A stretch of 64,000 nt of DNA from Burkholderiales bacterium. Its GTDB lineage: Bacteria > Pseudomonadota > Gammaproteobacteria > Burkholderiales > SG8-39. The position numbers and the translations under genes are program-made. A model generated the notes under the pieces. The model was not told the origin of the DNA. It did no database searches and saw only the letters and a list, made by a program, of their open reading frames with translations. Numbering within the stretch: position 1 is the stretch's first letter; each line of letters opens with the position of its first letter. Below are positions 12,421 through 30,419 of this stretch, piece after piece. Location of the stretch: positions 144,835 to 208,834 of the forward strand of contig DATIDG010000049.1 in assembly GCA_035456405.1 (NCBI GenBank). The letters run 5' to 3'.

Positions 12421-13836
12421 ATGCGTTACGTTTCCACCCGCGGCGGGATGGCCCCTGCCGCGTTCTGCGAGATCCTGCTCGAAGGGCTCGCGTCCGACGG
12501 CGGGCTGACCATCCCCGAGACCTACCCGCGGGTCGACCGCGCGACGCTCGCTGCCTGGCGCAAGCTCGACTACCGGGCGCTCGCATTCGAGATCCTGTCG
12601 CAGTACATCGACGACATCCCCGCTGCGGACCTCAGAGCCATCGTCGACCGCACGTACACTGCGGGAGTCTTCGGCTCCGACGAAATCACCCCGGTGCGCA
12701 CGTTCGAGCGGGGGCTGTACCTCCTGCAGCTCTCGAACGGCCCGACGGCGGCCTTCAAGGACGTCGCGATGCAGCTGCTCGGAAGCTTGTTCGAGCACGT
12801 GCTCGCCGCGCGCGGCGAGACCCTGAACATCCTCGGCGCGACCTCCGGCGACACCGGCTCGGCCGCCGAGTACGCGATGCGCGGCAAGCACGGCATCCGC
12901 GTGTTCATGCTGTCGCCGCACGGCAAGATGAGCGCGTTCCAGACGGCGCAGATGTACTCGCTCGCCGATCCGAACATCTTCAACCTCGCGGTGCGCGGCG
13001 TGTTCGACGACTGCCAGGACGTCGTCAAGGCGGTGTCCGCCGACCTCGACTTCAAGACGCGGCTGCGGATCGGTTCGGTGAACTCGATCAACTGGGCGCG
13101 GCTCGTCGCTCAGGTCGTCTACTACTTCAAGGGCTATTTCGCGGTGACGCGGGGCGAGGACGACGAGGTCTCGTTCGCCGTCCCCTCCGGAAACTTCGGC
13201 AACATTTTTGCCGGCCACGTCGCGCGCTCGATGGGCCTGCCGATCCGGAAGCTGATCCTGGCGACCAACGAGAACAACGTGCTCGACGAGTTCTTCCGGA
13301 CCGGCGTGTACCGGGTGCGGGCGGCGAAGGAGGTGTTCCAGACCTCGAGCCCCTCGATGGACATCTCGAAGGCGTCGAACTTCGAACGCTACGTGTACGA
13401 CCTGGTCGGCCGCGACCCGGTGCGCGTGCGCGAGCTGTGGCGCCGCGTCGACGCCGGGGGCGAGTTCGATCTCTCCGGCTCCGCGTACTACACGCGGGTC
13501 GGGGAGACCGGCTTCGTCTCCGACTTCAGCACGCACGCCGACCGGCTCGCGACGATCCGGCGGGTGCACAGCCGCTACGGCTACATCGTCGACACCCACA
13601 CGGCCGACGGCATCAAGGTGGGACTGGGGTTCCGCGAGCGCGGCGTGCCGCTCGTCTGCCTCGAAACCGCGCTCGCCGTGAAGTTCGATGGCGCGATTCG
13701 CGAGGCGCTCGGCTTGGCGCCGCCCCGGCCGAAGGCCTACGAGAACCTCGAATCGCTGCCGCAGCGCTTCGAGGTGATCGACGCCGATGCCGAAGCCGTG
13801 AAGCGCTTCATCGCAAGAGCAGCCGGCGTTTCGTGA
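12421..13836 (+). CDS. thrC: Threonine synthase
   Basis: 471 aa starting MRYVSTRGG..., with the PLP-lysine context NGPTAAFKDVAMQLLG. It follows hom. Confidence 0.96.
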   Translation: MRYVSTRGGMAPAAFCEILLEGLASDGGLTIPETYPRVDRATLAAWRKLDYRALAFEILSQYIDDIPAADLRAIVDRTYTAGVFGSDEITPVRTFERGLYLLQLSNGPTAAFKDVAMQLLGSLFEHVLAARGETLNILGATSGDTGSAAEYAMRGKHGIRVFMLSPHGKMSAFQTAQMYSLADPNIFNLAVRGVFDDCQDVVKAVSADLDFKTRLRIGSVNSINWARLVAQVVYYFKGYFAVTRGEDDEVSFAVPSGNFGNIFAGHVARSMGLPIRKLILATNENNVLDEFFRTGVYRVRAAKEVFQTSSPSMDISKASNFERYVYDLVGRDPVRVRELWRRVDAGGEFDLSGSAYYTRVGETGFVSDFSTHADRLATIRRVHSRYGYIVDTHTADGIKVGLGFRERGVPLVCLETALAVKFDGAIREALGLAPPRPKAYENLESLPQRFEVIDADAEAVKRFIARAAGVS

Positions 13837-13837
13837 C

Positions 13838-15490
13838 TCAGAGGTAGCTCCGGTACGTCGGGTCGTACATGCGCGACCTGACGTCCCCGAGAACGTCCGC
13901 TGGCCGCGGGCGTGCAGCGAGCCCGCTCGAATACGCCACCTCCGCCACCGCGGCGGCGATGTGCGCGGACACGTCCCGGACGCGTGCGAGCGGCGGATAG
14001 AGGCTCCCCTGCTCGAGATCCTGCGCGGTAACCTGCTTCGACAGGGCGTGCGCAGCGGCGAGGAACATCCCGTCGGTGACGTGGCGGGCCTTGGATGCGA
14101 TTGCGCCCAACCCCACGCCGGGAAAGACGTACGAGTTGTTGCCCTGCCTCGGCACGTGCGTCCGGCCGTTCACGGTGACAGGATCGAACGGGCTGCCGCA
14201 CGCGAACAGGCCCCGGCCGTCGGTCCAGCGGTACGCCTGCTCGGCGGTGCACTCGGACTTCGAGGTCGGGTTCGAGAGCGCGAACACGATCGGCCGGGGA
14301 TTGATCTCGGCCATCTTGCGCAGCACCGCCTCGGTGAAGGTTCCGCCGACTGCGGCGACGCCGACGATGCCGGTGGGACGCAGCGCCTCGATCGCCGCGA
14401 GGAATTCTCCCACCGGCCGGTGGTCGTGCGCGTAATGCAGCTTGTGCTCGGCGAGGTCGGTCCGTCCCTTCACGACGAGCCCGTGCGAGTCGAAGAGCCA
14501 CAGCCGCTCGCGTGCTGCCGGCTCCGGGAGGCCGTCGGCCTGCATCGCCGTGCACACCAGGTCGGAAATCCCGGTCGCGGCCTCGCCGGCGCCCATGAAC
14601 AGGATCTTCTGGTCGCGCATCCGGCCGCCGGTGACGCGCAGAGCCGACAGGACGCCGGCGAGCGCCACCGCTGCGGTGCCCTGGATGTCGTCGTTGAACG
14701 TGCAGATCCGTTCGCGGTATTTGCGCAGCATGCGGAAAGCGCTGTGGTTCGCGAAGTCCTCGAACTGCACGACCACGCCGGGGAAGAGCTCCTGCGTCGC
14801 GACGACGAACTCCTCGACGAGGGCGTCATAGTCCGGACCGGTCACGCGGCGCTGCTTCAGCCCGAGGTACAGCGGGTCGTCGAGCAGCGCCTGGTTGTTG
14901 GTCCCGACATCGAGAGTGACCGGCAGGGTCCGGCTCGGGTAGATGCCGGCGCAGGCGCTATACAGCGCGAGCTTCCCGACCGGGATGCCCATACCGTTCG
15001 CGCCGAGGTCGCCCAGGCCGAGGATCCGCTCGCCGTCGGTCACCACGATGATGTCAACCTCGCGGTAGGGCCAGTTGCGCAGCACGGTGGCGACGCGGCC
15101 GCGGTCGGCAGCGGTGACGTACATGCCGCGCGGGCGCGTGTAGATGTGGCCGAAGCGCTGGCACGCGAGGCCGACGGTCGGCGTGTAGATGATCGGCTGC
15201 ATCTCGTCCGGGTGCTCGAGCAGCACGCGGTAGAAGAGCGCCTCGTTGCGGGTGTGCAGCGCCTCGAGCCGGATGTACTTGTCGAGCGGATCGGGCACCC
15301 GGCGCAGGTTCTCGAGGATGCGGCCGACCTGCTCATCCTGGGTTGCGACGAGCGGCGGCAGGAGGCCGCGCAGGCCGAGGGCGTCGCGTTCGGCCTCGGT
15401 GAATGCCGTGCCCTTATTGAGCGCGGGATCGCGCAGTAGCTCGATGCCGTGCGGGGTTGCCGGCTTGCCGGCAGCAGCGTTCGTTGGCAT
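13838..15490 (-). CDS. maeA: NAD-dependent malic enzyme
   Basis: 550 aa with LLRDPALNKGTAFTEAERDALGLRGLLPP and FNDDIQGTAAVALAG, which are malic-enzyme signatures. Confidence 0.95.
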   Translation of the reverse strand: MPTNAAAGKPATPHGIELLRDPALNKGTAFTEAERDALGLRGLLPPLVATQDEQVGRILENLRRVPDPLDKYIRLEALHTRNEALFYRVLLEHPDEMQPIIYTPTVGLACQRFGHIYTRPRGMYVTAADRGRVATVLRNWPYREVDIIVVTDGERILGLGDLGANGMGIPVGKLALYSACAGIYPSRTLPVTLDVGTNNQALLDDPLYLGLKQRRVTGPDYDALVEEFVVATQELFPGVVVQFEDFANHSAFRMLRKYRERICTFNDDIQGTAAVALAGVLSALRVTGGRMRDQKILFMGAGEAATGISDLVCTAMQADGLPEPAARERLWLFDSHGLVVKGRTDLAEHKLHYAHDHRPVGEFLAAIEALRPTGIVGVAAVGGTFTEAVLRKMAEINPRPIVFALSNPTSKSECTAEQAYRWTDGRGLFACGSPFDPVTVNGRTHVPRQGNNSYVFPGVGLGAIASKARHVTDGMFLAAAHALSKQVTAQDLEQGSLYPPLARVRDVSAHIAAAVAEVAYSSGLAARPRPADVLGDVRSRMYDPTYRSYL

Positions 15491-15546
15491 GACTCTCCTC
15501 CAGTGCCGCTCCGTCGTTCAGGGACCGTGGCGGCTGCGGCCCGAGG

Positions 15547-16551
15547 TCAGACGTACTCGCTCGTGTACGACTTGAGCGCCTTCATGTAGTTCGACCGCTC
15601 GAACGCGTCCGGATCGGGGCAGGCGCGCTGGCTGAGCGAGCCCTTCATCTGCGCGACCGACTCGTAGTCGCGTTCCCTCATCCAGGTTTCCACGCCCCGC
15701 AGCAGGCCGGTCACGTGCGCGGGGCCCTTGCGGAGCAGGCTGCTCGCGAGCATCACGCAGTCGGCGCCGGCGAGCACGAGTTTCAGCACGTCCTCGGGCG
15801 TGTGCGCGCCGCCGGTGGCGGCGAGGCTCGCGTCGATGCGCCCGTGCAGGATCGCGATCCAGCGCAACGCGAGGCGCAGCTCGTCGGACGTGGACAGCAC
15901 CAGGTGCGGCGCGACCTCCAGCTCCTCGAGCAGGATGTCGGGTTGCACGAACCGGTTGAACAGGACGAGCCCCGATGCCCCGGCGCGGGCGAGGCGGGCG
16001 GCCATGTTGGCCATTGCGCTGAAGTAGGGCGAGACCTTCACCGCGACGGGCACCTTGACCTGGCTCTTCACCGCGGCGACCAGATCCACGTAGCGAGTCT
16101 CCACCGCGGCGCTCGTGTCGTCGGGATCGGTGGCGAGGAAGTAGACGTTAAGCTCGATGGCGTCGGCGCCGGCATCTTCGAAGCGCTGCGCGTATCGCGT
16201 CCAGCCGCCCGGCGTGTGGCCGTTGAGGCTAGGGATCACCGGCACCGAGAGGGACTTCTTCGCATCCGCGATCAGCTGCAGGTACTGGTCGGGGCCGGTC
16301 TCGTACGCGACCTCCGGGAAGAACCCCTGCGCCTCGGGGGAGATCTCGGCGCCGTACAGCATCAGCTTGTGGGCGGCCATCTCCTCGTGCTCGATCTGCT
16401 CCTCGAAGAGCGAGGGAAGCACGACCGCGGCCACGCCGGCGTCCTCGAGCCGCTTGAGGCTCTCGATGGTGCCTGTCAACGGCGAAGCCGAGGCGACGAT
16501 CGGGTTGCGGAGATCGAGCCCGAGGTAACGCGTGCGCAAATTGACGCTCAT
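15547..16551 (-). CDS. Dihydroorotate-dehydrogenase-like TIM-barrel flavoprotein (PFOR-associated)
   Basis: 334 aa starting at the ATG at 16551. LGLDLRNPIVASASPLTG and GGAHTPEDVLKLVLAGADCVMLAS are class-1 DHOD-like FMN-barrel motifs. The start overlaps the PFOR stop (ATGA). Confidence 0.85.
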   Translation of the reverse strand: MSVNLRTRYLGLDLRNPIVASASPLTGTIESLKRLEDAGVAAVVLPSLFEEQIEHEEMAAHKLMLYGAEISPEAQGFFPEVAYETGPDQYLQLIADAKKSLSVPVIPSLNGHTPGGWTRYAQRFEDAGADAIELNVYFLATDPDDTSAAVETRYVDLVAAVKSQVKVPVAVKVSPYFSAMANMAARLARAGASGLVLFNRFVQPDILLEELEVAPHLVLSTSDELRLALRWIAILHGRIDASLAATGGAHTPEDVLKLVLAGADCVMLASSLLRKGPAHVTGLLRGVETWMRERDYESVAQMKGSLSQRACPDPDAFERSNYMKALKSYTSEYV

Positions 16552-19500
16552 GTCTCCAGCTCCTCGCTCGGTGGCCCGGAGGTCACGACGCCCGGCTCCG
16601 CCTCGGCGCCGCTTTCGGATTCGGCCTCCTCCGGCACGACCCGGTGCACGCCGGCCATCTGCTCGTAGTACTGCCAGCGCGCGTCGATGTCGGCCTGGGC
16701 CGCCTTCATCAGCTGCTTCGCACGCTCGGGATCGGAGCGCGCGAGCATCGCGAAGCGGCCTTCCTTCATCGCGAACTGCTCGAACGGAATGGTCGGCTTG
16801 CGCGAGTCGAGCTTCAGCGGCTGGTCGGCGCCGCCCATGCCTAGCCGCGGGTCGTAGCGGTAGAGTGTCAGGTAGCCGCTCTTCACCGCATCCTTCTGGT
16901 GGCTCATCGCGGTCGACATCTCGATGCCGTGCGCGATGCAGTGGCTGTACGCGATGATCAGCGACGGGCCGGTCCACGATGCGGCTTCCCGGAACGTGCG
17001 CACCGTCTGCACCGGGTTCGCGCCCATTGCCACCTGTGCGACATACGCGTTGCCGTAGGCCATCGCGATCATCCCGAGGTCCTTCTTGGCGATCGGCTTG
17101 CCGGCCGCGGCGAATTTCGCCACCGCGGCGCGCGGCGTCGACTTCGACGCCTGGCCGCCGGTGTTGCTGTAGACCTCGGTGTCGAGCACCAGGATGTTCA
17201 CGTTGCGGCCGGAGGCGAGGACGTGGTCGAGGCCGCCGTAGCCGATGTCGTAGGCCCAGCCGTCGCCGCCCACGATCCACACGCTGCGCGTCACCAGGCT
17301 GTCGGCCACGGCGAGGAGCTGCTTTGCCTCGGGGAAGCGCAGCCGCGGAAGGATCGCCTTCAGCGCCGTCACCCGCTCGCGCTGCGCGCCGATCTCCTCG
17401 TCGCTCGCCTGCGGTGCCTGCAGCAGCGCATCGGCCAGGTCCGCGCCGATCTCCGCGCGCAGCTCGCGCACCAGCCGGTCCGCCAGCGCGCGCTGCGCAT
17501 CGAGTGCGAGCCGCATGCCCAGACCGAACTCGGCGTTGTCCTCGAACAGGCTGTTCGACCATGCGGGCCCCTGACCGGCACGGTTCTTCGTCCACGGCGT
17601 GGTCGGGAGATTGCCGCCGTAGATCGACGAGCAGCCGGTCGCGTTGGCCACCAGCAGATGGTCCCCGAAGAGCTGCGTGAGCAGCTTCAGGTACGGCGTC
17701 TCGCCGCAGCCTGCGCAGGCGCCGGAGTACTCGAACAGCGGTTCGCGCAGCTGCGCGCCCTTGAGCAGCTCGATCGCGTCAAACGACGGGCGGAGCTCGG
17801 GCAGCGCGAGGAAGAACTCGTAGTTGCGCCGCTCGACCTCGAGGTGCTCGAGCTTCGGCGTCATGTTGATCGCCTTGTGCTTCACGGCCTCCTTGCTGCG
17901 CGCCGGACAGATGTCCACGCACACGCCGCAGCCGGTACAGTCGTCCGGGGCGACCTGGATCGTGAACGCCCATCCCGCGGTCGGGCCGTCCTTGCGGTTC
18001 CACGTCTGGTGCTGGAAGCCCTTCGGCGCGTCCTTCAACAGTCCGGGCGGATAGACGTTCATGCGGATCGCCGCGTGCGGGCAGACGAGCGGGCACAGCG
18101 CGCACTGTGTGCACACGCCGGTATCCCAGATCGGGATCTCGTGCGCGATGCTGCGTTTCTCCCACCGCGTCGTGCCGGTCGGGAACGTGCCGTCGACCGG
18201 CAGCGCCGACACCGGGAGCAGGTCGCCCTGGCCGTCGAGCATCATCGCCGTGACGCGCCGCACGAAATCGGGCGCGGCCTCGGGCACCGGCGGGCGGCGG
18301 CGGAGCGGGGAGTCGGTGCGCGCCGGGACCCTGACCGGATGCAGCGCGGCGAGCGACTGGTCCACGGCGGCGAAGTTGCGGGCGAGAACGGTCTCGCCGC
18401 GCTTGCCGTAGGTCTTGCGGATCGATTCCTTGATCTCGGCGATCGCCTCTTCGCGCGGCAAGATGCCGGAGATCGCGAAGAAGCACGCCTGCATCACCGT
18501 GTTCAGGCGGCCCGCGAGACCCGCGTCGCGCGCGACCTTCAGCGCGTCGATCACGAACATCCGCAGCTTGCGGTCGACGATCGCGCGCTGCGCCTCGCCG
18601 GGGAGCTTGTCCCACACTTCCTCGGGGCCGTGGGGGCTGTTCAGCAGGAACGTCGCGCCGGGCCGGGCGAGCGCGAGCACGTCGAGCTTCTCCATGAACT
18701 CGAACTGGTGGCAGGCCACGAAGTCGGCCTGGCGGATCAGGTAGGTCGACTCGATCGGCTGCGGCCCGAAGCGCAGGTGCGACACCGTGATCGCGCCCGA
18801 TTTCTTGCTGTCGTAGACGAAGTAGCCTTGCGCGTGCAGCGGCGTGTTCTCGCCGATGATCTTCACCGAGTTCTTCGTCGCGCCGACCGTGCCGTCGGCG
18901 CCGAGCCCGTAGAAGAGGGCACGCGTGACGTCGGGCGGTTCGGTGTCGAAGCTCTCATCCCAGGCGAGGGAGAGGCGGGTCACGTCGTCGACGATGCCGA
19001 CCGTGAAATGGCGTCGGGGCCGCGGCTCGGCGAGCTCGTCGAGCACTGCCTTCGCCATCGCAGGCGTGTACTCCTTGGACGACAGGCCGTAGCGGCCGCC
19101 GATCACCCGCGGGGCGGGCGTCGCCTCGGGCCAGCGCTCCGCGAGCGCGGCGAGCACGTCCTGGTAGAGCGGCTCACCGACCGCGCCCGGCTCCTTGGTC
19201 CGGTCGAGCACCGCGAGGGCGCGGACGCTCGCCGGCAGCGCTGCGACGAAGGCCTGCGCGTCGAACGGCCGGTAGAGCCGCACGGTCACGAGCCCCACGC
19301 TCTCGCCGGCAGCCACGAGCTTGCGCACCGCCTCGCCTGAGGCGCCGATTCCCGAGCCCATCTGCACCAGCACGCGCTCGGCGTCGGGCGCGCCCTGGTA
19401 GTCGAAGAGCCCGTACCGCCGGCCGGTGAGCTGCGCGAAGCGCTCCATGCACTCGCGCACGATGCCCGGCACCGCGTCGTAGAAGGGGTTGCACGCCTCG

Positions 19501-20186
19501 CGCGCCTGGAAGAACACGTCCGGGTTCTGCGCCGTCCCGCGGAGTACCGGGCGATCGGGATTGAGCGCGCGGGCGCGGTGCGCCTCGACCAGATCGTCGC
19601 CGAGCAGCTCGCGCACCTCCTCCTCGAAGAGGCAGTCGATCTTGTTCACCTCGTGGCTGGTTCGGAACCCGTCGAAGAAGTGCAGGAACGGCACGCGCGC
19701 GCGCAGCGTGGCGACCTGCGCGATCATCGCCATGTCCTGCGCCTCCTGGACGCTGGCGGAGCACAGCATCGCCCAGCCAGTGGTGCGCGCGGCCATCACG
19801 TCGCTGTGGTCGCCGAAGATCGACAAAGCGTGCGTGGCCACGGTGCGCGCGGCGATGTGGAAGACCGTCGGCGTGAGCTCCCCCGCGATCTTGAACATGT
19901 TGGGCAGCATCAGGAGCAGGCCCTGCGAGGCAGTGAAGGTCGTCGTCAGCGCACCCGCCTGGAGCGATCCGTGCACCGCGCCGGCCGCGCCGGCCTCGCT
20001 CTGCATCTCGATCACCTCGGGCACGACGCCCCACAGGTTCTTGCGGCGCGCGGCGGACCAGGCATCGGCGAACTCGCCCATCGGCGATGCGGGCGTGATC
20101 GGGTAGATCGCGATCACCTCGTTGGTGAGGTGGGCGATCCGCGCGGCGGCCTCGTTGCCGTCCATCACGATCGAGCGCTCACTCAT
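16548..20186 (-). CDS. nifJ: Pyruvate:ferredoxin (flavodoxin) oxidoreductase, single-polypeptide type
   Basis: 1212 aa from the ATG at 20186 (MSERSIVMDGNEAAARIAHLTNEVIAIYPITPASPMGE). Two ferredoxin-type cluster motifs (CTQCALCPLVCP, CTGCGVCVDICP) and TPP motif GGDGWAYDIG. The track's extra 177 N-terminal codons were rejected. Confidence 0.95.
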   Translation of the reverse strand: MSERSIVMDGNEAAARIAHLTNEVIAIYPITPASPMGEFADAWSAARRKNLWGVVPEVIEMQSEAGAAGAVHGSLQAGALTTTFTASQGLLLMLPNMFKIAGELTPTVFHIAARTVATHALSIFGDHSDVMAARTTGWAMLCSASVQEAQDMAMIAQVATLRARVPFLHFFDGFRTSHEVNKIDCLFEEEVRELLGDDLVEAHRARALNPDRPVLRGTAQNPDVFFQAREACNPFYDAVPGIVRECMERFAQLTGRRYGLFDYQGAPDAERVLVQMGSGIGASGEAVRKLVAAGESVGLVTVRLYRPFDAQAFVAALPASVRALAVLDRTKEPGAVGEPLYQDVLAALAERWPEATPAPRVIGGRYGLSSKEYTPAMAKAVLDELAEPRPRRHFTVGIVDDVTRLSLAWDESFDTEPPDVTRALFYGLGADGTVGATKNSVKIIGENTPLHAQGYFVYDSKKSGAITVSHLRFGPQPIESTYLIRQADFVACHQFEFMEKLDVLALARPGATFLLNSPHGPEEVWDKLPGEAQRAIVDRKLRMFVIDALKVARDAGLAGRLNTVMQACFFAISGILPREEAIAEIKESIRKTYGKRGETVLARNFAAVDQSLAALHPVRVPARTDSPLRRRPPVPEAAPDFVRRVTAMMLDGQGDLLPVSALPVDGTFPTGTTRWEKRSIAHEIPIWDTGVCTQCALCPLVCPHAAIRMNVYPPGLLKDAPKGFQHQTWNRKDGPTAGWAFTIQVAPDDCTGCGVCVDICPARSKEAVKHKAINMTPKLEHLEVERRNYEFFLALPELRPSFDAIELLKGAQLREPLFEYSGACAGCGETPYLKLLTQLFGDHLLVANATGCSSIYGGNLPTTPWTKNRAGQGPAWSNSLFEDNAEFGLGMRLALDAQRALADRLVRELRAEIGADLADALLQAPQASDEEIGAQRERVTALKAILPRLRFPEAKQLLAVADSLVTRSVWIVGGDGWAYDIGYGGLDHVLASGRNVNILVLDTEVYSNTGGQASKSTPRAAVAKFAAAGKPIAKKDLGMIAMAYGNAYVAQVAMGANPVQTVRTFREAASWTGPSLIIAYSHCIAHGIEMSTAMSHQKDAVKSGYLTLYRYDPRLGMGGADQPLKLDSRKPTIPFEQFAMKEGRFAMLARSDPERAKQLMKAAQADIDARWQYYEQMAGVHRVVPEEAESESGAEAEPGVVTSGPPSEELET

Positions 20187-20196
20187 CGCAATTCCT

Positions 20197-20832
20197 TCAA
20201 AGCAGCCCGGCGCGACCGCTCTGCCAGCGGCTGTACTCCGTGGTGAGTATCTCGACGTGCTCGCGCTCTTCTGCGGCGAGCTCCCGGTAGAGCTGGCGCT
20301 CCGCCGACCCCTCGGGCGACTGCTCGCCGCGCTCGGCAAAGAACTTCGTCGCACGCTGCTCGAACGCGATCGCGATGCGAAACAGGTTGGCGGGGTCCTC
20401 GGGCTGCCGGTCGACGCCCGCGAAGATCGCGGCGCGATCGATCTGGAGGTCCGCCGCGGGTGCCGGCAGGTCCGCGTGATACCGCCGCGACAGGGTTGCC
20501 ATGTGCAACTTCTCCATCTCGGCCATGCGGCCGAAGAGGTCCCGGAGCGCGGGTTCGGCCGCGTCGCGCGCGGCGCGCTCGTAGAACGCGAGCCCGCCGA
20601 GCTCGATCTCGAAGGCCATCCGGATCGCGTCGAGGGCCCGTTCGTCCTCAATCGGCCCGCGCTCGAGCAGTTCGAGCCGGCCCCTGCAGTGCGGACACAT
20701 GCCGTAGGGGAAGGCAAACCCTTCGCTCACCTTGCCGCATGCGGCGCAACGCCAGCGCAGCTCGACGCCGGCGCAGCAGACGTAGGCTTCCTCGCCTTCG
20801 AGCGGTCGGCGGCAGCGCGGGCAGACGTTCAT
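20197..20832 (-). CDS. Zn-ribbon/rubredoxin-like plus diiron ferritin-like (rubrerythrin-type) protein
   Basis: 211 aa from the ATG at 20832. Eight N-terminal Cys residues (CPRC, CC, CAAC, CPHC). The C-terminal helical domain has E...ExxH twice (EMEKLH, EEREH, plus EIE and FEQ). The start overlaps the upstream gene's stop (ATGA). Confidence 0.75.
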   Translation of the reverse strand: MNVCPRCRRPLEGEEAYVCCAGVELRWRCAACGKVSEGFAFPYGMCPHCRGRLELLERGPIEDERALDAIRMAFEIELGGLAFYERAARDAAEPALRDLFGRMAEMEKLHMATLSRRYHADLPAPAADLQIDRAAIFAGVDRQPEDPANLFRIAIAFEQRATKFFAERGEQSPEGSAERQLYRELAAEEREHVEILTTEYSRWQSGRAGLL

Positions 20833-23192
20833 GATGGACGGGCCTCGCTTGAATCGGCGGCCGCTGACGCAGTGAGCAGCGCCGGCGGGACGAACGCGTC
20901 GACATCCGCTTGCGAGATCGGCCAGGTCTGCTTGCCGCCCTGCAGCCATGCGCCGATCGCCTTCGCGGCGCGTCGGCCGGCGCCCATCGCCAGGATCACC
21001 GTCGCCCCGCCGGTGACGATGTCCCCGCCCGCGAACACGCCGGGCAGGTTGGTGGCCTGCGTAACCGGGTCGGCCACGATGTAGCCCCACTTGTTGAGGC
21101 CGAGTCCGGGCGTCGACTGCGCGACGATCGGGTTCGCCTTCGTTCCGAGGGCATAGATCACCGTGTCGCACTCGAGCTCGACAAATTCGTCGAGCGGCAC
21201 CGGCTTGCGGCGGCCCTTCTCGTCGGGCTCGCCGAGCGCCATCTTCTGCACCTTGATGCCGCGGACGTTGCCGTCGGCATCGGTCTGGATCTCGACCGGC
21301 CCGTGCAGGAAGAAGAACTCGATGCCTTCCTCCTTAGCATGGCGCAGCTCCTCGACCCGCGCCGGAGCTTCGGCCTCCGAGCGGCGGTAGACGCAGCGCA
21401 CCGTCGGCGTGCCCAACCGCTTGGCAACGCGCAGACAGTCCATCGCGGTGTTGCCGGCTCCGATCACCACCACGCTCTTGCCGAGCGTGATCGGCGTGTC
21501 CAGGTACGGGAACTTGTCGCCACCCATCAGGTTGACGCGGGTGAGGAACTCGTTGGCCGAGTAGACCTGGCCGGCGAACTCGCCGGGAATGCCGAGGAAG
21601 GCCGGGGCGCCGGCGCCAGCGGCGACGAACACCGCGTCGAAACCCATCTCGCCCATCAGCTGCGGCACCGAGAAGGTCTTGCCGATCACCTTGTTGGTCT
21701 CGAACCTGACGCCGAGCGCCTGCAGGTGTTCGACCTCGCGGCTGATGATCTCGCGCGGCAGACGGAAGGAGGGGATGCCGTACTGAAGCACGCCGCCCAC
21801 CACGTGCAGCGCCTCGTATACGGTGACTTCGCAGCCGTAGCGGGTCAGATCGGCCGCCACCGCCAGCCCCGCCGGGCCGGAGCCGATGACGGCGACGCGG
21901 CCGAGCGGGCGCGGCACGCGCGGCGGCCCGGCCTTGCGCGGCCGCGCGTTGTCGCCCACGAAGCGCTCCAGCCGGCCGATCGCCACCGACTCGAGCTTGC
22001 GGCCGACCACGCACTGCGCCTCGCACTGCGACTCCTGCGGGCACACGCGACCGCAGACCGACGGGAAGAGATTGGACTCGTTGATGACGCCGAGCGCGCC
22101 GTCGACGTCGCGCACCAGCAGGTGCTTGATGAAGCGCGGGATGTCGATCGACACCGGGCAGCCCTCGATGCAGGCCGGCTTCGAGCACATGATGCAGCGC
22201 TCGGCCTCGGCCAGGGCGTCGGCCATCGAGTAGCCGAGGTTCACTTCCTTGAAATTGCGCGAGCGCTCGAGCGGGTCGCGCTCGGGCATTTTCGTCGCGT
22301 GCGGCGCAAGGTCCTTGTACTTCTTGTAGTTGGTCTTGTTCTGCTCGAACAGCACCTTCTCGACGTGGCACACGTGCGCGTAATCGTTCGCCGCCGTGGC
22401 CTCCTCAGTCTTGAAGCGGCGCTGGCGCAGCATCAGTTCCTTGAAGTCGACCTGGTGGCCGTCGAAGTCGGGCCCGTCGACGCATGCGAACTTGACCTCG
22501 CCCCCGACCGAGACGCGGCAGGAACCGCACATGCCGGTGCCGTCGACCATGATCGCGTTGAGCGACACCATCGTCTTCACGCCGAACGGCCGAGTCGTCT
22601 CGACGCACGCGTTCATCATCGGCAGCGGGCCGATGGCGACGACCAGATCCGGGCGGTCGCGCTCGAGCACCTCCTGCAGCGCCGCCGTGACGAAGCCGTG
22701 CTTCCCGTAGCTGCCGTCGTCGGTGCAGACGATGAGCTCGTCGCAATGCTGCTTGAACCGGTCCTCCCAGAACACGAGGTCGCGGTTACGGAAGCCGATG
22801 ACGCCGGTCGTGCGGTTGCCGGCCGCCTTGAACGCGCGCAGCTGCGGATACACCGGCGCGACGCCGAGGCCGCCGCCGACCAGCACGACGTGCCCGGCCC
22901 GGTCGACGTGCTGCGGCAGGCCGAGGGGGCCGACGAAGTCGGCGAAACCGTCGCCCGCCTTGTAGTGATCGCGCATCTCGAGCGTCGTCTTGCCGAGCGC
23001 CTGGATGACCAGGGTGACGGTGCCATCGTCGCGGTCGTAGTCGGCGACAGTGAGGGGAATGCGCTCGCCGCCTTCGTGCAGGCGGAGCATGACGAAGTGC
23101 CCGGGTTGCGCGGACTTCGCAACGTCGGGGGCGAGGACCTCCCACAAGAAGGTCGCGTCGGAGAACGCTTCCCGGCGAACGATCCGGTACAT
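20829..23192 (-). CDS. Fused NfnA-like (PyrK/FNR-type) and NfnB/GltD-like NAD(P)H oxidoreductase
   Basis: 787 aa from the ATG at 23192 (MYRIVRREAF). N-terminal FAD/NAD module ending in the 2Fe-2S motif GMCGSCRV. The following GltD-like half has CIMCSKPACIEGCP, CGRVCPQESQCEAQC and the dinucleotide fold VAVIGSGPAGLA. Confidence 0.88.
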   Translation of the reverse strand: MYRIVRREAFSDATFLWEVLAPDVAKSAQPGHFVMLRLHEGGERIPLTVADYDRDDGTVTLVIQALGKTTLEMRDHYKAGDGFADFVGPLGLPQHVDRAGHVVLVGGGLGVAPVYPQLRAFKAAGNRTTGVIGFRNRDLVFWEDRFKQHCDELIVCTDDGSYGKHGFVTAALQEVLERDRPDLVVAIGPLPMMNACVETTRPFGVKTMVSLNAIMVDGTGMCGSCRVSVGGEVKFACVDGPDFDGHQVDFKELMLRQRRFKTEEATAANDYAHVCHVEKVLFEQNKTNYKKYKDLAPHATKMPERDPLERSRNFKEVNLGYSMADALAEAERCIMCSKPACIEGCPVSIDIPRFIKHLLVRDVDGALGVINESNLFPSVCGRVCPQESQCEAQCVVGRKLESVAIGRLERFVGDNARPRKAGPPRVPRPLGRVAVIGSGPAGLAVAADLTRYGCEVTVYEALHVVGGVLQYGIPSFRLPREIISREVEHLQALGVRFETNKVIGKTFSVPQLMGEMGFDAVFVAAGAGAPAFLGIPGEFAGQVYSANEFLTRVNLMGGDKFPYLDTPITLGKSVVVIGAGNTAMDCLRVAKRLGTPTVRCVYRRSEAEAPARVEELRHAKEEGIEFFFLHGPVEIQTDADGNVRGIKVQKMALGEPDEKGRRKPVPLDEFVELECDTVIYALGTKANPIVAQSTPGLGLNKWGYIVADPVTQATNLPGVFAGGDIVTGGATVILAMGAGRRAAKAIGAWLQGGKQTWPISQADVDAFVPPALLTASAAADSSEARPS

Positions 23193-23298
23193 GTAATCGC
23201 CTTGGCGCTGCCGAGGGAGCTGATCCGCGGTGGGGGTTCGCGCAGGCCGGTCATCGGCCCGCTTCCGCGTAGTCTCTGGGAGGCGGTCGCTCGGCCCG

Positions 23299-23312
23299 TT
23301 GACGTAGATCAA
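23299..23312. promoter_or_regulatory. FNR/CRP-family palindrome upstream of the nfn-PFOR operon
   Basis: TTGACGTAGATCAA matches TTGAT-N4-ATCAA at 9 of 10 positions. It lies within the larger palindrome CCGTTGAC....GATCAACGG, centred about 113 nt upstream of the operon ATG. Confidence 0.45.
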
Positions 23313-23341
23313 CGGCGATGCGCAGCGCGGTCCAGCGCGAA

Positions 23342-24282
23342 TCAGGGCGAGGGGGGCGCGGCGATACCGGGGCTCACCGCGAAGAGGCGCGGGTTCGCGG
23401 GATCGACGTCCACGCGCACCCAGTTCAATTCGGGCGAGCTGAAGCCTTCGACGCGCGTGAAGGTGGCGATCGGGCGCCCGGTCGACGCGTCGCGCAGAGG
23501 CTGGTCGACGCGGTAGCGGTGCCCGTCGCCGTGAACGCGTAGAGCAGCGGCTTGCGGAGCCAGCCCGCGTGCGTCTGCAGGACCGCCCGGAAACGCGCGT
23601 AGCCGTCGATGCGCGGCGGGCCGCGCCGGAATCGCGGGTCCGCGTGCGCAAACACGGCCAGTCCGCGAATCTCGGGCGCTTCGGACCGCTTCACTGCCTC
23701 GTCGAGCCACTCGAAGTTTGCCCGCATGCGCTCCGCGTGCTCCGCGTCCATCTCCGGATTGCGTCCAAGGTTATTGTTGCTGCCGGGGACGTTCAGCGTG
23801 ACGAAGACGACCCCGCTGGTGACCCACCGAGTGTTCTCGCGGTAGGCGAAGAACCGCTCTTCCGCGCTCTGGCGCGTGAGCCGCAGCGATCGGTTCCCGA
23901 GGCTCCTATCGCCGGCGTGGAACAGCGCGCGGAGCCTGTCGAGCCGCTCGAGGGGATCGTGGCGGCCGGCGCCGGCACGGTGGCAGTCGGTCCAGTCGTT
24001 GTCGCCCGGAACTAAGACGAGCGGCACCGGGGACGCGTCGAGGAGGCGGAGGCGATCGGCAAACACCGCGTCGGCGCACGAAGTGAAGCCGCCCTTGAGA
24101 TCCCCGACGTGAACGGCGAAGGCGACGCGCGCGTCGCGCAGGTCCTCGAGCAGCCGCGCGACGCCCGCCTCCTCGTGCGCGAAGTACGGCGTGTCGCCGA
24201 CGACGGCGAAGCGTCAGCGCTCGGCGCCCTGGGCGGCGAGCGCGAGTGCGCCGAGCGCGACCGCCGCGACCGCCCGCCTCAC
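23342..24282 (-). pseudogene. Secreted calcineurin-like metallophosphoesterase, disrupted by an in-frame TGA and a frameshift
   Basis: A GTG at 24282 (overlapping the mutS stop as GTGA) opens the signal peptide [21 protein letters not shown]. An in-frame TGA follows at 24214-24216. The same frame then continues RFAVVGDTPYF...HVGDL...VPGDNDWTDC to about 23540. There the conserved HGDGHRYRVDQPL continues in another frame (track 23342..23710). Confidence 0.7.
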
Positions 24283-26840
24283 AGCTTCTTGAGTTTGTAC
24301 ACGAGCTCGAGCGCGTCGCGCGGGGCGAGCTCGTCGGGGTTCACCGCGTCAAGCAGGTCGAGCGCCGGGTGGCGTTCGGGTTCGGGAGCGGGCGGGGCCG
24401 CGAAGAGATCCGAGTGACCGTCGCGCTGGAGGCTGCGGTGCTCGAGCTCCTGCAGATAGCGGCGTGCCGCCCGGATCACCGCGCCCGGCACGCCGGCGAG
24501 CGCCGCCACCTGCAGGCCGTAGCTCTGGCTCGCGGGACCCTCCTCGAGCGCGTGCAGGAAGACGATCCGGTCCTTGTGCTCGACCGCATCCAAGTGCACG
24601 TTCGCGACCTCGCGGTACTCCTGCGCGAGGCCGGTCAGCTCGAAGTAGTGCGTCGCGAAGAGGGTGTACGCGCGGGTGCGCTCCACCAGATGGCGTGCGA
24701 TCGCCCACGCGAGCGCGAGCCCATCGAAGGTCGAGGTGCCGCGCCCGACCTCGTCCATCAGCACGAGGCTCGCTTCGGTCGCGTTGTGGAGGATGTTCGC
24801 GCTCTCGGTCATCTCGACCATGAACGTCGAGCGCCCGCCGGCGAGGTCGTCGGCCGCGCCGATGCGCGTAAAGATGCGGTCGATCGGGCCGATGCGCGCG
24901 GCGCGCGCGGGCACGAAGCTTCCGAGGTGCGCGAGCAGGACGATGAGGGCGACTTGCCGCATGTAGGTCGACTTGCCGCCCATGTTCGGTCCGGTGATGA
25001 GGAGCAGGCGGCGGGTGGGCGCGAGTCGCGTGTCGTTGGCGATGAACTGCTCGACCTGCGACTCGACCACCGGGTGCCGGCCCGCGTCGATCTCGATCGC
25101 GGCCTCGTCCACGAACTGCGGGCGCCTCCAGTCGCGCGCGACCGCGGTTGCGGCGAACGCCGCGAGCACGTCGAGCTCGGCGACGGCGCGCGCGAGTGCC
25201 TGCAGCCGCGGGGCGTGCGGTGCCAGCGCCGCAAGCAGCTCGTCGTACAGCGACTTCTCCAGCGCCAGCGCCCGCTCCCGCGCAGAGAGGGCCTTTTCCT
25301 CGAAGGCCTTCAGCTCGGGCGTGATGTAGCGCTCGGCGTTCTTGAGCGTCTGGCGCCGGCGATAGTCCTCCGGCACCTTGTCGGCGTGCGCATTGCTGAC
25401 TTCGATGTAGTAGCCATGCACGCGGTTGTACTCGACGCGCAGACTTGGGATGCCGGTGCGGCCGCGTTCGCGGGCCTCGAGCGCGACGAGGAAATCGCCG
25501 GCGTTCGACTGCAGCGCGCGCAGCTCGTCGAGCTCGGCGCTGCGTCCGGCGGCGATGACTCCGCCGTCGCGTACCATGGCGGCCGGCTCCGCGGCGATCG
25601 CGCGCCGCAAGGCGTCGACGCAGGCCTCGGGCGGCTCGAGCTCGCCGCGCAGTGTCGCCAGGCGATTCGCCTGCTCGCCGGCCACCGCAGCCGCGAGATC
25701 GGGCAGGAGCGCGAGCGAATCGCGCAAGCCGGCCAGCTCACGGGGTCGCGCACTCTTGAGCGCGATCCGCGCGGCAATGCGCTCGATGTCGGCGCAACGG
25801 CGCAGCACTGCCTGCATGGCCTGGTACGGGCCGGCACCCGCTTCGCCGGAGAGCGCCTCGATCGCCTCGTGCCGGGCGGCGAGCGCCGCGCGGTCACGCA
25901 GGGGGTGATGCACCCAATGGCGAAGCAAGCGGCTCCCCATCCCGGAGACGCACGCGTCGATCTCGCTGAACAGCGTCGGCGCGGGCGTGCCCCGCAGCGT
26001 CTCGGTGAGCTCGAGATTGCGGCGGGTCGCGGCGTCGAGCCGCACGTACGCATCGTCCCGCTCCGCGCGCAGCGCGACGACGTGCGTGAGCGACTGGGCT
26101 TGGGTCCTGCGCGCGTAGGCGAGGAGGGCGCCCGCGGCGCCGAGCGCGACGCCGAGATCCTCGACGCCGAACCCGGCGAGCCCCGCTGTGCCGAAGTGGC
26201 CCTCGAGCAGGCGGCGCGCGGCGTCGGTGTCGAACTGCCAGGGCGGCAGCCGCGTGACCGCGCCGATGTCGGCCGGCAATGCGGGCGCGGCGTCGTCGGC
26301 AACCAGGATCTCGGCGGGGGCGACGCGCCGCAACTCGTCGAAGAGCGACCGCGCGCCGGTCTCCAACACCCGGAAATCGCCGCTCGCGAGGTTAAGCCAC
26401 GCGAGCCCGACCGTGCCGCGCACTGCAGCGAGCGCGAGCAGCACGTTGTCGGCCTTCTCGTCGAGAAGGCCTGCGTCGGTGAGCGTGCCGGGCGTGACGA
26501 TGCGCGTCACGGCGCGCTCGACCGGTCCCTTCGCCGTTGCGACGTCGCCGACCTGCTCGCAGATCGCGACCGATTCACCCAGCTTCACCAGCTTCGCGAG
26601 GTACTGCTCGACCGAGTGCCACGGCACGCCGGCCATCTTGATAGGCTGGCCGGCCGAGCTGCCGCGCTGCGTGAGGGTGATGTCGAGGAGGCGGGCCGCC
26701 CTCTCCGCGTCCTCGTGGAAGAGCTCGTAGAAATCCCCCATCCGGTAGAAGAGCAGCATGTCCGGATACTGGGCCTTGAGGCCCAGGTACTGCTGCATCA
26801 TCGGGGTGTGCTGACCTCTTAAGCCCTCGTCCAACTTCAT
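24279..26840 (-). CDS. mutS: DNA mismatch repair protein MutS
   Basis: 853 aa starting [31 protein letters not shown], with Walker [10 protein letters not shown]. Confidence 0.97.
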
Positions 26841-27127
26841 CTATTTTCTCCGGAATATAGCCTAACTAGCTAAGTAAAATAGCTTAAATCGTCTAGCAGT
26901 GTCTTCCTGTGTCCAGGAGCGTCTGCCACCATCCAGCCGGTTTGGGGCGTTCCTGGGGCAGTTTTCCACGAACCCTGATCGAATTGGAGTAGCTTTCGGG
27001 GCAATTTTTGCGAGGCGCCGACCGATGATGAAAATCCTGACTCAGGGCGGCAGCTCAGATACCGAACCATCCGCGCGTGGCGCGCGTGACTCGTTCACTT
27101 GTTGAGCGCGATGGGTAGTCAAGAACG

Positions 27128-27610
27128 ATGAATAGCCCTCGGGCAAGCCGGCAACTCTGGTTAGCCGTCCGATGCCTGTTCCTGATCCTTTCTTTGTTGG
27201 GAGTTCTAACAGCTCGGAGCGAGCCGCTTGTTGGCCCTTCTGCGACACCTCATGAGGGAGAGCAGAAATCGGTACAGAAAACGGTCTTATGGGACCTCGT
27301 GGTTCTTGGTCGAATTGACGCGTGTTGGGTTTGTCAACACGGCCCGCCGCCGCACGTCAGCTATACAATAGTTCTTGCTGGGAAAGCACCGACGGGGAAG
27401 GCCCAGGGACAGATTGCCCTTGCGGAAATGTCACCACGGCTGCTGCCAGAAGGAGGTACTCCTATCTACAGGAGCCAACGAGAGGAGATCTGCTATCTGA
27501 AGACTGTCACGCTGCCAGCCAATGAGAGCGCAAGTGTCTACAAGCTAATCGATGTTGAGGAAGCGACACCCGAAAATCTGGCTAAGTTTCAGAGGACCGG
27601 CAAGCAATAA
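27128..27610 (+). CDS. Hypothetical secreted protein with a CxxC motif
   Basis: 160 aa with signal peptide LWLAVRCLFLILSLLGVLTA and a CWVC motif. I recognise no family. It lies in a lower-GC segment 34 nt upstream of the next gene. Confidence 0.6.
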   Translation: MNSPRASRQLWLAVRCLFLILSLLGVLTARSEPLVGPSATPHEGEQKSVQKTVLWDLVVLGRIDACWVCQHGPPPHVSYTIVLAGKAPTGKAQGQIALAEMSPRLLPEGGTPIYRSQREEICYLKTVTLPANESASVYKLIDVEEATPENLAKFQRTGKQ

Positions 27611-27656
27611 CTTGAACGAAACGATACTCGTCGAATAAAGAGCTGTGGGGGCGAAT

Positions 27657-29510
27657 ATGGGCACGAAGCAAAGTAGACGCTTTTCGATCACGCTGACCGT
27701 TGTGTGTACGTCGCTATTGTTTTCCTCGTTTGTTGCAGTTTCGATTGCTCAGGGCGAATCCGCGGGGGCACGGTCTGCGACACCTTATTATGACGAGGGA
27801 GAGGCGGCGGCTGTCGCCAGGACCCTTGTTACTCCCGGCCTGCGGACGTACAGAGCCGCAGGGGGGACGGACGTTCCGCTGATCGGAAGGAACGAACCCG
27901 CCGTCGCGGTCAACCCATGGGATCCCACCAACGTGGTGGTGGCCGGCCTGTTCGAAATTCGCGTTTCAACCGACACCGGAGTGACTTTCACTTCCGCTAC
28001 ACCATCCCCTGTACCCGGTACGCATGTTCGGTGCGGAGATCCCTCGGTGGCATTCGACAGTCGAGGGCGTCTTTTCTGGACGTTCCTTGGCTGCATTGGT
28101 AGCGGCATCGACGTTTTCATCGCCCAGGTTAACCCGTTAACCGGGGCCGTCATCGCTGGGCCCTTCAACGTGACTGCAGCCGCTGGCGTTCCCGGCAGCG
28201 CCGGTAATGGGAACGACAAGGAGTGGCTCGCCATCGACCGCTTCGTTGGAAGTCCCTTCCAAGACCGGATCTATGTGGTCTGGACGAACTTTCTGCCCAC
28301 GGGCGGAACTGTTGTGCAAACGACATTCTCGACCGATCAAGGAGTGAACTGGTCGCCAGCGTTGACGGTGTCGGCGGGTGGTGAGGGGTTTGTCTGGCCG
28401 AGCCACAATGCCGTGGCCTCCAATGGAGATGTCTATGTTTCGTACCATTCTCAACCGACTTTTGCCGCTAATGCGCCTGACGGGACAAGCGGCCGGATAT
28501 TTGTCTTGCGATCCACAGATGGTGGCGCATTGTTTCCGCAGAAGAATGCCGCCTACACAGGAGGCAACGCCGACATTACGTTCAATGTTCAGTTTGGCGT
28601 TCGGACTTTGAACCAGAATCGGTCGTGGACGCAGGGGGCCGCGCAGCCATGGGTATTGCCAGATCCGCTCAACGCCAACAATGTCTACGTGATAGCCGGT
28701 GACGATCCGACCAACGCGGCCCATGGTGGCACGAACGACGACCTAAATGTATATATCGTTCGCTCGACTGACTCTGGAAGCACGTGGAGCAGCCCGACTC
28801 GGATTGACCGGGCCCCGGCCAACAACCACTCGTTCTTCCCCACCGCGACAATCGACGACAAGACAGCATGCATTGTGGTCAACTGGTATGACACGCGGAA
28901 TGGCGCGACAAATGTGGATGGTAACTTCATGTTGGACCTGTTCACGACAATCAGCAACGATGGCGGTCTGACCTTTGCTTCTGAATCGCAGATTAACGAT
29001 GCGCCGTTCGATCCTGACTTAGGCGCACCAGATAGATTTCCCCCGACCCGGACTTTGCGGATTGGGGAGTACATCGGCGTGACAGTCTCCAATGGGCTAG
29101 CGCATTCGGTATGGACAGGCAACACCGCTACCGGTCAGCAGATCCTGTACGAGAATAGTCCGGCGAAATGCCACGTCACGGTGGACCTCGATATCAAGCC
29201 AGGAAGCGTTCCGAACTCGATTAACACGACGAGCAAGGGCGTGATCCCGGTGGCGATTCTGTCGACTGCAACTTTCGACGCGACCTCGGTCGATCCGCGC
29301 TCGGTGACTTTTGGCCCCGGTGCTGCGACGGAAGCGCACGGACGAGGACACATCGAGGACGTCAATGGCGACACCATTCAGGATCTCGTGTTGCATTTCA
29401 GCACGCAAGAAAGCGGGCTGGGCGTCGGCGACACACAAGCCTGCGTCGATGGCACGACGTATGGCGGCGCGCCGATTCATGGCTGCGATACGGTAAGGAT
29501 CGTCCGTTAG
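27657..29510 (+). CDS. Secreted BNR/Asp-box repeat (sialidase-fold-like) propeller protein
   Basis: Signal peptide. Five S-x-D-x-G-x-T-W/F boxes (STDTGVTF, STDQGVNW, STDGGALF, STDSGSTW, SNDGGLTF). The C-terminal roughly 110-aa domain is IKPGSVPNSIN...GVIPVAILS...HIEDVNGD. The start may be the GTG at 27645 instead. Confidence 0.8.
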   Translation: MGTKQSRRFSITLTVVCTSLLFSSFVAVSIAQGESAGARSATPYYDEGEAAAVARTLVTPGLRTYRAAGGTDVPLIGRNEPAVAVNPWDPTNVVVAGLFEIRVSTDTGVTFTSATPSPVPGTHVRCGDPSVAFDSRGRLFWTFLGCIGSGIDVFIAQVNPLTGAVIAGPFNVTAAAGVPGSAGNGNDKEWLAIDRFVGSPFQDRIYVVWTNFLPTGGTVVQTTFSTDQGVNWSPALTVSAGGEGFVWPSHNAVASNGDVYVSYHSQPTFAANAPDGTSGRIFVLRSTDGGALFPQKNAAYTGGNADITFNVQFGVRTLNQNRSWTQGAAQPWVLPDPLNANNVYVIAGDDPTNAAHGGTNDDLNVYIVRSTDSGSTWSSPTRIDRAPANNHSFFPTATIDDKTACIVVNWYDTRNGATNVDGNFMLDLFTTISNDGGLTFASESQINDAPFDPDLGAPDRFPPTRTLRIGEYIGVTVSNGLAHSVWTGNTATGQQILYENSPAKCHVTVDLDIKPGSVPNSINTTSKGVIPVAILSTATFDATSVDPRSVTFGPGAATEAHGRGHIEDVNGDTIQDLVLHFSTQESGLGVGDTQACVDGTTYGGAPIHGCDTVRIVR

Positions 29511-29534
29511 AACCGAGCCACCCAGTCAGAACGA

Positions 29535-29563
29535 AAGAGCGGTCCTCCGGGGCCGCTCTTCTT
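29535..29563 (+). terminator. Rho-independent-type terminator after the Asp-box protein gene
   Basis: AAGAGCGG...CCGCTCTT stem followed by CTT, 25 nt after the stop codon. Confidence 0.5.
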
Positions 29564-29942
29564 GCTCGCAGCCGTGGCTCGTGACCGTCCTGGGTGATAC
29601 GGTCATGGCTCATTCGCCAACCTAGCGGCGGGGCAGAACTCGGCGCACGACCACGCTGGATGGTGGGGGGGGTGCCAGCTAATTTCGTCGCGAGAAGTCG
29701 GTCCAGCAGGGGCACTCCGACGGACTCCGCCGAATGACCGGGGAGGCGGCGACGGCCGCGCTGAATGCTGCCGACGGTCATGCCGCTGCGTGGTGAGGTC
29801 GGAGTCATCGTCGCGATTGACATTCCTCAAAGCCCCCGCACAGGGACGGCGCAGATTATTCCAAATGGGAGTGTGTGGTAGCTAGCGAAAGGAGATGCAG
29901 AGGCATTCGCATTTCGCGTACCGTTTGCTAAGGAGGATGCAA

Positions 29943-30380: not shown

Positions 30381-30419
30381 CGAAGCCCGTGCATCGCGCG
30401 AGCGGGCCCACCGCCCCGC

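Follow-up and report, generated by a model that had tools for sequence, protein, structure and literature searches.

Pyruvate:ferredoxin oxidoreductase (PFOR) is central to anaerobic and microoxic carbon metabolism and is a target of CO2-fixation and hydrogen engineering. In all Propionibacterium genomes studied, the PFOR gene is flanked by genes for a GltD/NfnB-like protein and a dihydroorotate dehydrogenase-like (DHOD-like) protein, and the genes of this neighbourhood are co-transcribed and co-regulated (McCubbin et al., 2020; PMC7650540). That study proposed a quinol-linked bifurcating complex, which is hypothetical (PMC7650540). The nifJ operon of Synechocystis, TU3296, contains sll0741 (nifJ), sll0743 and sll0744, the last annotated as ‘DHOD (fumarate)’, and is transiently induced under microoxic conditions (PMC11368403). 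Here we analyse a 64,000-nt stretch of Burkholderiales contig DATIDG010000049.1 (‘the window’), which carries four tightly packed minus-strand genes, g1–g4. They encode a fused NfnA-NfnB reductase, a cysteine-rich di-iron protein, a PFOR and a DHOD-like protein. The PFOR and DHOD-like pair is the one co-transcribed in Propionibacterium and Synechocystis, and the NfnB-type neighbour is shared with Propionibacterium too; the NfnA part and the ferritin-like module belong to the window operon and are undescribed in the two studies (PMC7650540; PMC11368403). The operon is a lineage-specific variant assembled from known parts. The feature most worth following is the PFOR and DHOD-like pair itself.

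The operon reads from g1 (20829–23192, 787 aa) through g2 (20197–20832, 211 aa) and g3 (16548–20186, 1212 aa) to g4 (15547–16551, 334 aa). The g1/g2 and g3/g4 junctions are ATGA stop/start overlaps (20829–20832 and 16548–16551), and the 10-nt spacer between g2 and g3 (20187–20196) contains an AAGGAA Shine-Dalgarno sequence. An earlier note on this DNA had described this layout and assigned domains to the four proteins. The open reading frames (ORFs) and a reading of the junctions confirm the layout, and matches to Pfam, NCBIfam and known structures confirm the domains. A consensus scan of 13500–24300 gave no promoter-like sites and, inside the cluster, no terminator-like sites on the minus (coding) strand; a simple scan gave no sigma-70-like hexamers. 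Given the overlaps and the lack of internal promoter- or terminator-like sites, the note's further claim of one coupled unit probably holds: g1–g4 probably form one co-translated unit, and we infer that they are co-transcribed in the Burkholderiales source organism. A gene for an NAD(P)-dependent malic enzyme (13838–15490, minus strand, 550 aa; NF010052, 730 bits), which the note had missed, starts 56 nt past g4 in the same orientation; no terminator separates the two, and it is a probable fifth gene.

The association of PFOR with the DHOD-like protein extends far beyond this lineage. We scanned synteny in one genome per species, anchored on an alignment of diverse g4 relatives, which gave 80 loci; counts for the pair also include one separately fetched locus (L001), for 81. 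The loci span Betaproteobacteria, Actinomycetota, Planctomycetota, Chloroflexota, Ignavibacteriota, Bacteroidota, Verrucomicrobiota, Acidobacteriota, Cyanobacteriota, Trueperaceae and others. Wherever enough upstream sequence was available (76 loci), PFOR lay immediately upstream of the DHOD-like gene on the same strand in all but three (73/76), with a median gap of 18 nt and a 4-nt overlap in 24 loci. The genes g1 and g2 are present only in three betaproteobacterial loci of the 80 anchored and absent from the other 77. Clustering of all neighbouring ORFs found no other neighbour conserved in more than about nine of the 81 loci, and the recurring themes near the pair are limited to Hox/HypF genes and ferredoxins. 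The bidirectional [NiFe] hydrogenase genes hoxEFUYH directly follow the DHOD-like gene in five loci (L005, L045, L058, L062 and L071), hox genes are divergent from PFOR in L070, and hypF adjoins PFOR in four (L028, L041, L050 and L061). At L071 (4483–10795) the DHOD-like gene and hoxEFUYH occur without PFOR.

On this gene-order evidence, the DHOD-like protein is to be read as belonging with PFOR, not with the reductase. The earlier note had left it without an assigned role next to PFOR. That stands insofar as the literature searched gave no functional study of the DHOD-like family, including sll0744, or of a g2 or g1-g2 protein, and the papers on oxygen-tolerant PFOR and the Azoarcus NADP-linked enzyme likewise gave none of g2 or DHOD-like proteins; its constant place behind PFOR, however, makes it the partner of that enzyme. 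The family thus has one constant neighbour, PFOR, and variable neighbours in NfnAB, GltD-like proteins and the Hox diaphorase. Since these variable neighbours are NAD(P)-linked iron-sulfur flavoproteins, an electron-transfer role of g4 fits.

The g4 protein belongs to NF005741/PRK07565, the family named ‘dihydroorotate dehydrogenase-like protein’, on which it scores 457.8 bits (cut-off 303) over profile positions 2–332 of 335. It fails every true DHOD model in NCBIfam, with scores far below the equivalog cut-offs (83.7 versus 270 on TIGR01037; 81.9 versus 269 on NF005574). Its structure model (predicted local distance difference test, pLDDT, 89.3) is a TIM barrel with a low-confidence insert at about residues 66–86. 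The closest structures are the flavin mononucleotide (FMN) domain of dihydropyrimidine dehydrogenase (DPD) and class 1A DHODs, at a template modelling (TM) score of about 0.7 and 16–20% identity. Conservation among 45 diverse family members extends to the residues that match the FMN site (K172, N135, N199, G248 and G276). Where DHODs have their catalytic Cys/Ser, in the ELN-x-S-C-P-N loop, g4 has F138, and the residue varies across these members (Tyr in 12, Phe in 11, Ser in 5, Asp in 4, His in 3, Leu in 2 and others). The position that we take, from our own motif comparison, to correspond to the active-site Lys of class 1A DHODs (K43) is also variable. Particular to the family are the invariant S47, F49, W117, E133, F198 and R319 and the nearly invariant E51, R200, W231, W290 and Y322. 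We therefore rejected g4 as a true DHOD or DPD subunit: the scores fall below the cut-offs and the catalytic position is not conserved. No PDB entry contains a DHOD-like partner of PFOR.

Some g4 relatives are longer. Among the 150 best representatives of the family at 50% identity, the extra length takes the form of a receiver domain or of unassigned extensions. In one of them, P0174 (500 aa), a receiver domain of the response-regulator type precedes the DHOD-like barrel on the same chain, a hint of a variant that is regulated or takes part in signalling.

The partner gene, g3, encodes what its sequence identifies as a canonical homodimer-type (NifJ-type) PFOR. It scores 1740 bits on TIGR02176 (cut-off 911) and has the complete Pfam set (POR_N, PFOR_II, POR, EKR, 2x[4Fe-4S] and the thiamine pyrophosphate-binding domains). 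It carries two CxxCxxCxxxCP motifs, aligns with the Moorella PFOR (6cin_A) at 1389 bits and ends in a short unconserved tail.

The first gene, g1, joins NfnA and NfnB parts in a single 787-aa ORF rather than in separate subunits of a heterodimer. Its N-terminal part is PyrK/NfnA-like, with flavin adenine dinucleotide (FAD) and [2Fe-2S] sites and a Pfam match to PF10418; its C-terminal part is GltD/NfnB-like, with two [4Fe-4S] clusters (Fer4_20) and sites for FAD and NADPH (PF14691 and PF07992). The small subunit of Pyrococcus NfnI (5jca_S) matches residues 1–262 at 324 bits, and Thermotoga NfnB (4ylf_B) matches residues 299–757 at 489 bits. The Asp and three Cys of the [2Fe-2S] motif (DGTGMCGSCR...FAC) are kept relative to the former, and both [4Fe-4S] Cys/Glu ligand motifs relative to the latter. 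NCBIfam holds two models for such NfnA-NfnB fusions, NF009414 and NF009413. Judged by these cofactor motifs, g1 is a complete NfnAB-type reductase, and a link between PFOR and NAD(P)H through it is therefore reasonable.

The g2 protein combines a Cys-rich N-terminal region with a ferritin-like four-helix bundle. Its eight N-terminal Cys (positions 4, 7, 19, 20, 29, 32, 46 and 49) are invariant in 23 sequences; the region contains CxxCG and CPxC knuckles and is zinc-ribbon or rubredoxin-like. The bundle has two E...ExxH di-iron motifs. E75/E77, E107, H110, E158, E188–E191 and H192 are invariant in the same sequences, and 2fzf has matching residues at the positions of the ligand motifs. The AlphaFold model is of moderate confidence (pLDDT 70.5) and has four long helices, with the Cys-rich region at low confidence. 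The Pfam Rubrerythrin match is partial (profile positions 2–53 of 137 only), and the best structural matches, to uncharacterised COG1633 proteins (2fzf and 2oh3) and bacterioferritins, are weak (E of about 2e-3 or weaker). A comparison with plasmids gave no match to g2.

The note had treated the ferritin-like protein as an orphan next to PFOR. It is better read as an appendage of NfnAB. The equivalog model NF009413 (1006 positions) is covered by g1 at positions 1–780 and by g2 at positions 797–1006. Among the 120 closest g1 homologs, fused g1-g2 orthologs occur (P0441, P0462, P0465, P0487 and P0489; 1003–1010 aa, about 86% identity), four of these five with a rubrerythrin-type domain. At one locus, L089, the fused gene lies directly upstream of the PFOR and DHOD-like genes. 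Because NF009413 spans both genes, the question arose whether the g1/g2 boundary is a frameshift artefact. We rejected this: the split with a 4-nt overlap recurs in four loci (L001, L085, L087 and L088), and true fusions exist too, so the boundary in the window is no sequencing artefact. From the fusions and the shared model, g1 and g2 are to be regarded as one functional unit, with g2 as an accessory module of NfnAB. At another locus, L024 (3301–6290), tblastn finds g1 and g2 each in two pieces in different frames, probably through assembly indels, and this locus is therefore unreliable for the question of fusion versus split.

The order g1-g2-PFOR-DHOD-like occurs in eight other loci (L001, L002, L003, L024, L085, L087, L088 and L089), all betaproteobacterial. 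The four-gene order suggested by the note is thus conserved within this group but not across taxa, as only three of the 80 anchored loci have it. In seven of the eight, an 81-aa 2x[4Fe-4S] ferredoxin gene directly follows the DHOD-like gene; in the other, L089, an 82-aa Fer4 gene lies divergently upstream of the cluster. The 64-kb window yielded no separate 2x[4Fe-4S] ferredoxin gene, in line with the note, and the equivalent place holds only a 56-nt spacer (15491–15546). The window lineage probably lost or relocated this gene. The note's proposal of a self-contained NAD(P)H-linked complex is accordingly split: the NAD(P)H link via g1 is reasonable, but independence of ferredoxin is weakened by the relatives that encode one.

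The malic enzyme gene lies downstream of the cluster in L002, L085, L087 and L088, as in the window. The fumarate reductase genes frdCAB are found upstream on the opposite strand in L001, L085, L087, L088 and L089, accompanied by fumarase and DcuB genes in the last four. Downstream, L085, L087 and L088 have Na+-NQR genes and L001 has nuo genes. Frd, fumarase, DcuB and Nqr genes were searched for and are absent from the 64-kb window, as are nuo genes. By gene content, the operon of the relatives stands in an anaerobic C4-dicarboxylate setting. In L024, a stretch some 5 kb past the operon (15777–16712) has 29% identity to residues 1–326 of PFOR and probably encodes the alpha subunit of a second 2-oxoacid:ferredoxin oxidoreductase.

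A candidate FNR/CRP-family box, to which no strand is assigned, lies at 23299–23312, its centre 112.5 nt ahead of the ATG start codon of g1. With one mismatch to TTGAT-N4-ATCAA, its sequence is TTGACGTAGATCAA on the plus strand and TTGATCTACGTCAA on the coding strand. It is the sole match with at most one mismatch in 64 kb. The box alone is weak evidence: chance would yield about 0.27 such matches, and at least one turned up in 22% of shuffles. Its recurrence carries more. Upstream of g1, each of the seven relatives scanned (L001, L002, L003, L024, L085, L087 and L088) has one or two boxes with 0–2 mismatches, and the upstream box of L085 is perfect (TTGATTTCGATCAA). In six related loci (111 kb), seven of 13 boxes with at most one mismatch fall within 3 kb upstream of g1. 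The FNR-type box proposed by the note is thus a conserved promoter feature, and control of the operon by an FNR/CRP-family regulator is likely.

The reading that we prefer, at about even chances, is an anaerobically induced operon that oxidises malate and pyruvate and passes PFOR electrons via ferredoxin to the fused NfnAB. Malic enzyme would produce pyruvate, and PFOR would convert it to acetyl-CoA and CO2. The low-potential electrons would leave PFOR on a small 2x[4Fe-4S] ferredoxin, in the source organism encoded elsewhere. The fused NfnAB (g1) would use reduced ferredoxin and NADH to make NADPH, a reaction that is reversible in principle. The di-iron protein g2 would likely be an O2/H2O2-reducing or iron-handling outlet of NfnAB, and g4 would be an FMN-binding partner specific to this PFOR clade, probably drawing electrons from the PFOR iron-sulfur chain. 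The gene organisation, the domain and ligand content, the synteny, the g1-g2 fusions and the recurrence of the box are observed; the direction of electron flow, the mediation by ferredoxin and the roles of g2 and g4 are what the proposal adds to them. Several points weigh against it. The box may bind a CRP/FNR-family regulator other than FNR, and, with no ferredoxin gene in the window, PFOR may contact NfnAB directly. FMN binding by g4 is predicted from conserved motifs and a modelled fold. No PFOR-DHOD-like fusions were seen among the 150 representatives described above, and distant plasmid members of the g4 family (below 50% identity; Methylocella, Parabacteroides and Acaryochloris) are not beside PFOR.

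A broader proposal concerns the pair rather than the operon. The DHOD-like FMN barrel could be an unrecognised, near-obligate redox subunit of a widespread, multi-phylum PFOR clade that draws electrons from the PFOR iron-sulfur chain. It would make PFOR a pyruvate:X oxidoreductase, where X is NAD(P)+, a quinone, fumarate or O2, or make it oxygen-tolerant, and NfnAB, GltD-like proteins and Hox would be interchangeable sinks. We put this forward tentatively, as possible yet short of probable. An uncharacterised protein behind the PFOR gene in many phyla is a gap in the understanding of PFOR in cells, and such a partner might explain PFOR in aerobes such as cyanobacteria or the fate of the electrons when ferredoxin is not the acceptor.

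Four other explanations were weighed against the ferredoxin-linked oxidation of malate and pyruvate. In the first, g1 and g2 together might reduce H2O2 or O2 with electrons from NAD(P)H, much as rubrerythrin does; g2 is fused to the NfnB end of g1 in orthologs, so that the NfnB clusters could feed it. The DHOD-like protein might also bleed electrons from PFOR, and the whole would keep an oxygen-sensitive PFOR working in facultative aerobes. The invariant di-iron ligands and eight Cys of g2 with their two knuckles agree with this, as do its partial Rubrerythrin match and the fusion itself. Cyanobacteria, Planctomycetota, Actinomycetota and Trueperaceae are largely aerobic or facultative, and the PFOR and DHOD-like pair occurs in these lineages. 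Yet the nearest relatives of g2 are COG1633 proteins and bacterioferritins rather than characterised rubrerythrins, by weak matches; the Cys-rich region is modelled at low confidence; and FNR-type control in a fumarate-reductase setting suggests expression when oxygen is scarce. Oxygen or peroxide protection is a rival to be taken seriously, if fairly unlikely. A hard-wired complex of all four proteins, the NAD(P)H-linked pyruvate oxidoreductase or synthase without soluble ferredoxin that resembles eukaryotic pyruvate:NADP+ oxidoreductase (PNO), would explain why all four genes are translationally coupled and why the 64-kb window lacks a ferredoxin gene. PFOR also has its own ferredoxin-like domain, and NfnB-type genes were independently recruited beside the PFOR and DHOD-like genes in Propionibacterium (PMC7650540). 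All eight related loci, however, have a dedicated ferredoxin gene in or beside the cluster, which makes such a complex less likely; g1 and g2 are missing from the 77 non-betaproteobacterial anchored loci, and no fusion of PFOR with any of the other three proteins was seen. Overall we judge it unlikely.

Oxidation of malate and pyruvate might also be the wrong way round. NfnAB, PFOR and malic enzyme are all reversible, and here they are encoded by adjacent genes. NfnAB could bifurcate electrons from NADPH to give reduced ferredoxin, PFOR could act as pyruvate synthase and malic enzyme could carboxylate pyruvate to malate, amounting to anaplerotic CO2 assimilation from acetyl-CoA. Sequence sets no direction, but the fumarate reductase, fumarase and DcuB of the relatives fit dicarboxylate catabolism at least equally, and an FMN partner on PFOR, by typical flavin potentials, favours oxidation; the reductive direction is in our estimate quite improbable. 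Least of all do we expect the genes to be neighbours by descent with independent functions. Each family does also occur alone, and DHOD-like genes without PFOR exist. Against this are the 4-nt overlaps, the same gene order in nine loci including the window and, at 73 of 76 loci, a DHOD-like gene next to PFOR, and we regard independence as highly improbable.

The genes around the operon in the window are housekeeping, with Pfam matches for dnaB, a phoH-like gene, an aminotransferase and mfd; from their translations only, further ORFs were judged to be hom-, thrC- and mutS-like. Full-length homologs of g1 and g2 with 100% identity are on record from a Burkholderiales metagenome-assembled genome. 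Upstream of the operon, a minus-strand ORF (23342–24066) is split between frames near 23520 (23425–24066 and 23342–23710). Both frames read like real protein, consistent with either a frameshifted pseudogene or an assembly indel, and neither piece matches Pfam or NCBIfam. The region 27000–31000 has a GC content of 0.585–0.62, against 0.65–0.72 elsewhere in the window, and may be a horizontally acquired island. It encodes a 621-aa protein (27645–29510), which has a hydrophobic N-terminus and matches the BNR repeat weakly, below threshold, and a small protein with a CxxCH haem motif (29895–30380). Rfam and tRNA scans of the window found nothing.

Each part of the operon can be set beside a known system. 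In PNO and in the Azoarcus 2-oxoglutarate:NADP+ and phenylglyoxylate:NAD+ (PadEFGHI) enzymes, electrons from 2-oxoacids end on NAD(P)+. The outcome of the proposed operon would match that of eukaryotic PNO, which the note had named as its analogue, but the analogy is one of outcome only. PNO has a fused domain of the cytochrome P450 reductase (CPR) type that carries FMN and FAD, whereas the link in the window operon would probably be a diffusible ferredoxin; by Pfam, all four proteins lack a flavodoxin or FNR-type CPR domain. Rubrerythrin and reverse rubrerythrin resemble g2 in having a di-iron four-helix bundle and, on the same chain, a Cys4-type metal site, which in g2 is putative. In g2, by contrast, the Cys region is N-terminal rather than C-terminal and has eight Cys, and the matches are to COG1633 proteins and bacterioferritins instead.

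NfnAB of Pyrococcus (5jca) and Thermotoga (4ylf) is like g1 in that both halves align over their full length and the cluster motifs are kept. It has two subunits, whereas g1 is one chain that is C-terminally coupled or fused to a Cys-rich di-iron protein; the likeness is one of sequence. As a fusion of NfnA and NfnB that occurs in nature and has a di-iron appendage, it offers a convenient single gene with which to study the coupling of ferredoxin and NADPH pools, and also whether a di-iron oxidase or peroxidase site can be fed by an Nfn-type enzyme. DPD (PreT/PreA) and class 1B DHOD (PyrK/PyrD) are built from the same parts as the operon: a GltD/PyrK-like reductase, iron-sulfur clusters and a DHOD-fold FMN barrel. 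By contrast, g4 has no C-terminal ferredoxin domain like that of PreA and no conserved residue at the catalytic Cys/Ser position, and the protein encoded next to it throughout is PFOR instead of a GltD or PyrK protein. The PFORs of Moorella thermoacetica (6cin) and Desulfovibrio africanus (1b0p) are collinear with g3 over about 1170 residues and share all its domains. To our knowledge, none of the structurally characterised PFORs is followed by a DHOD-like gene. In the clade to which g3 belongs, in contrast to the characterised homodimeric enzymes, the DHOD-like gene is nearly always next.

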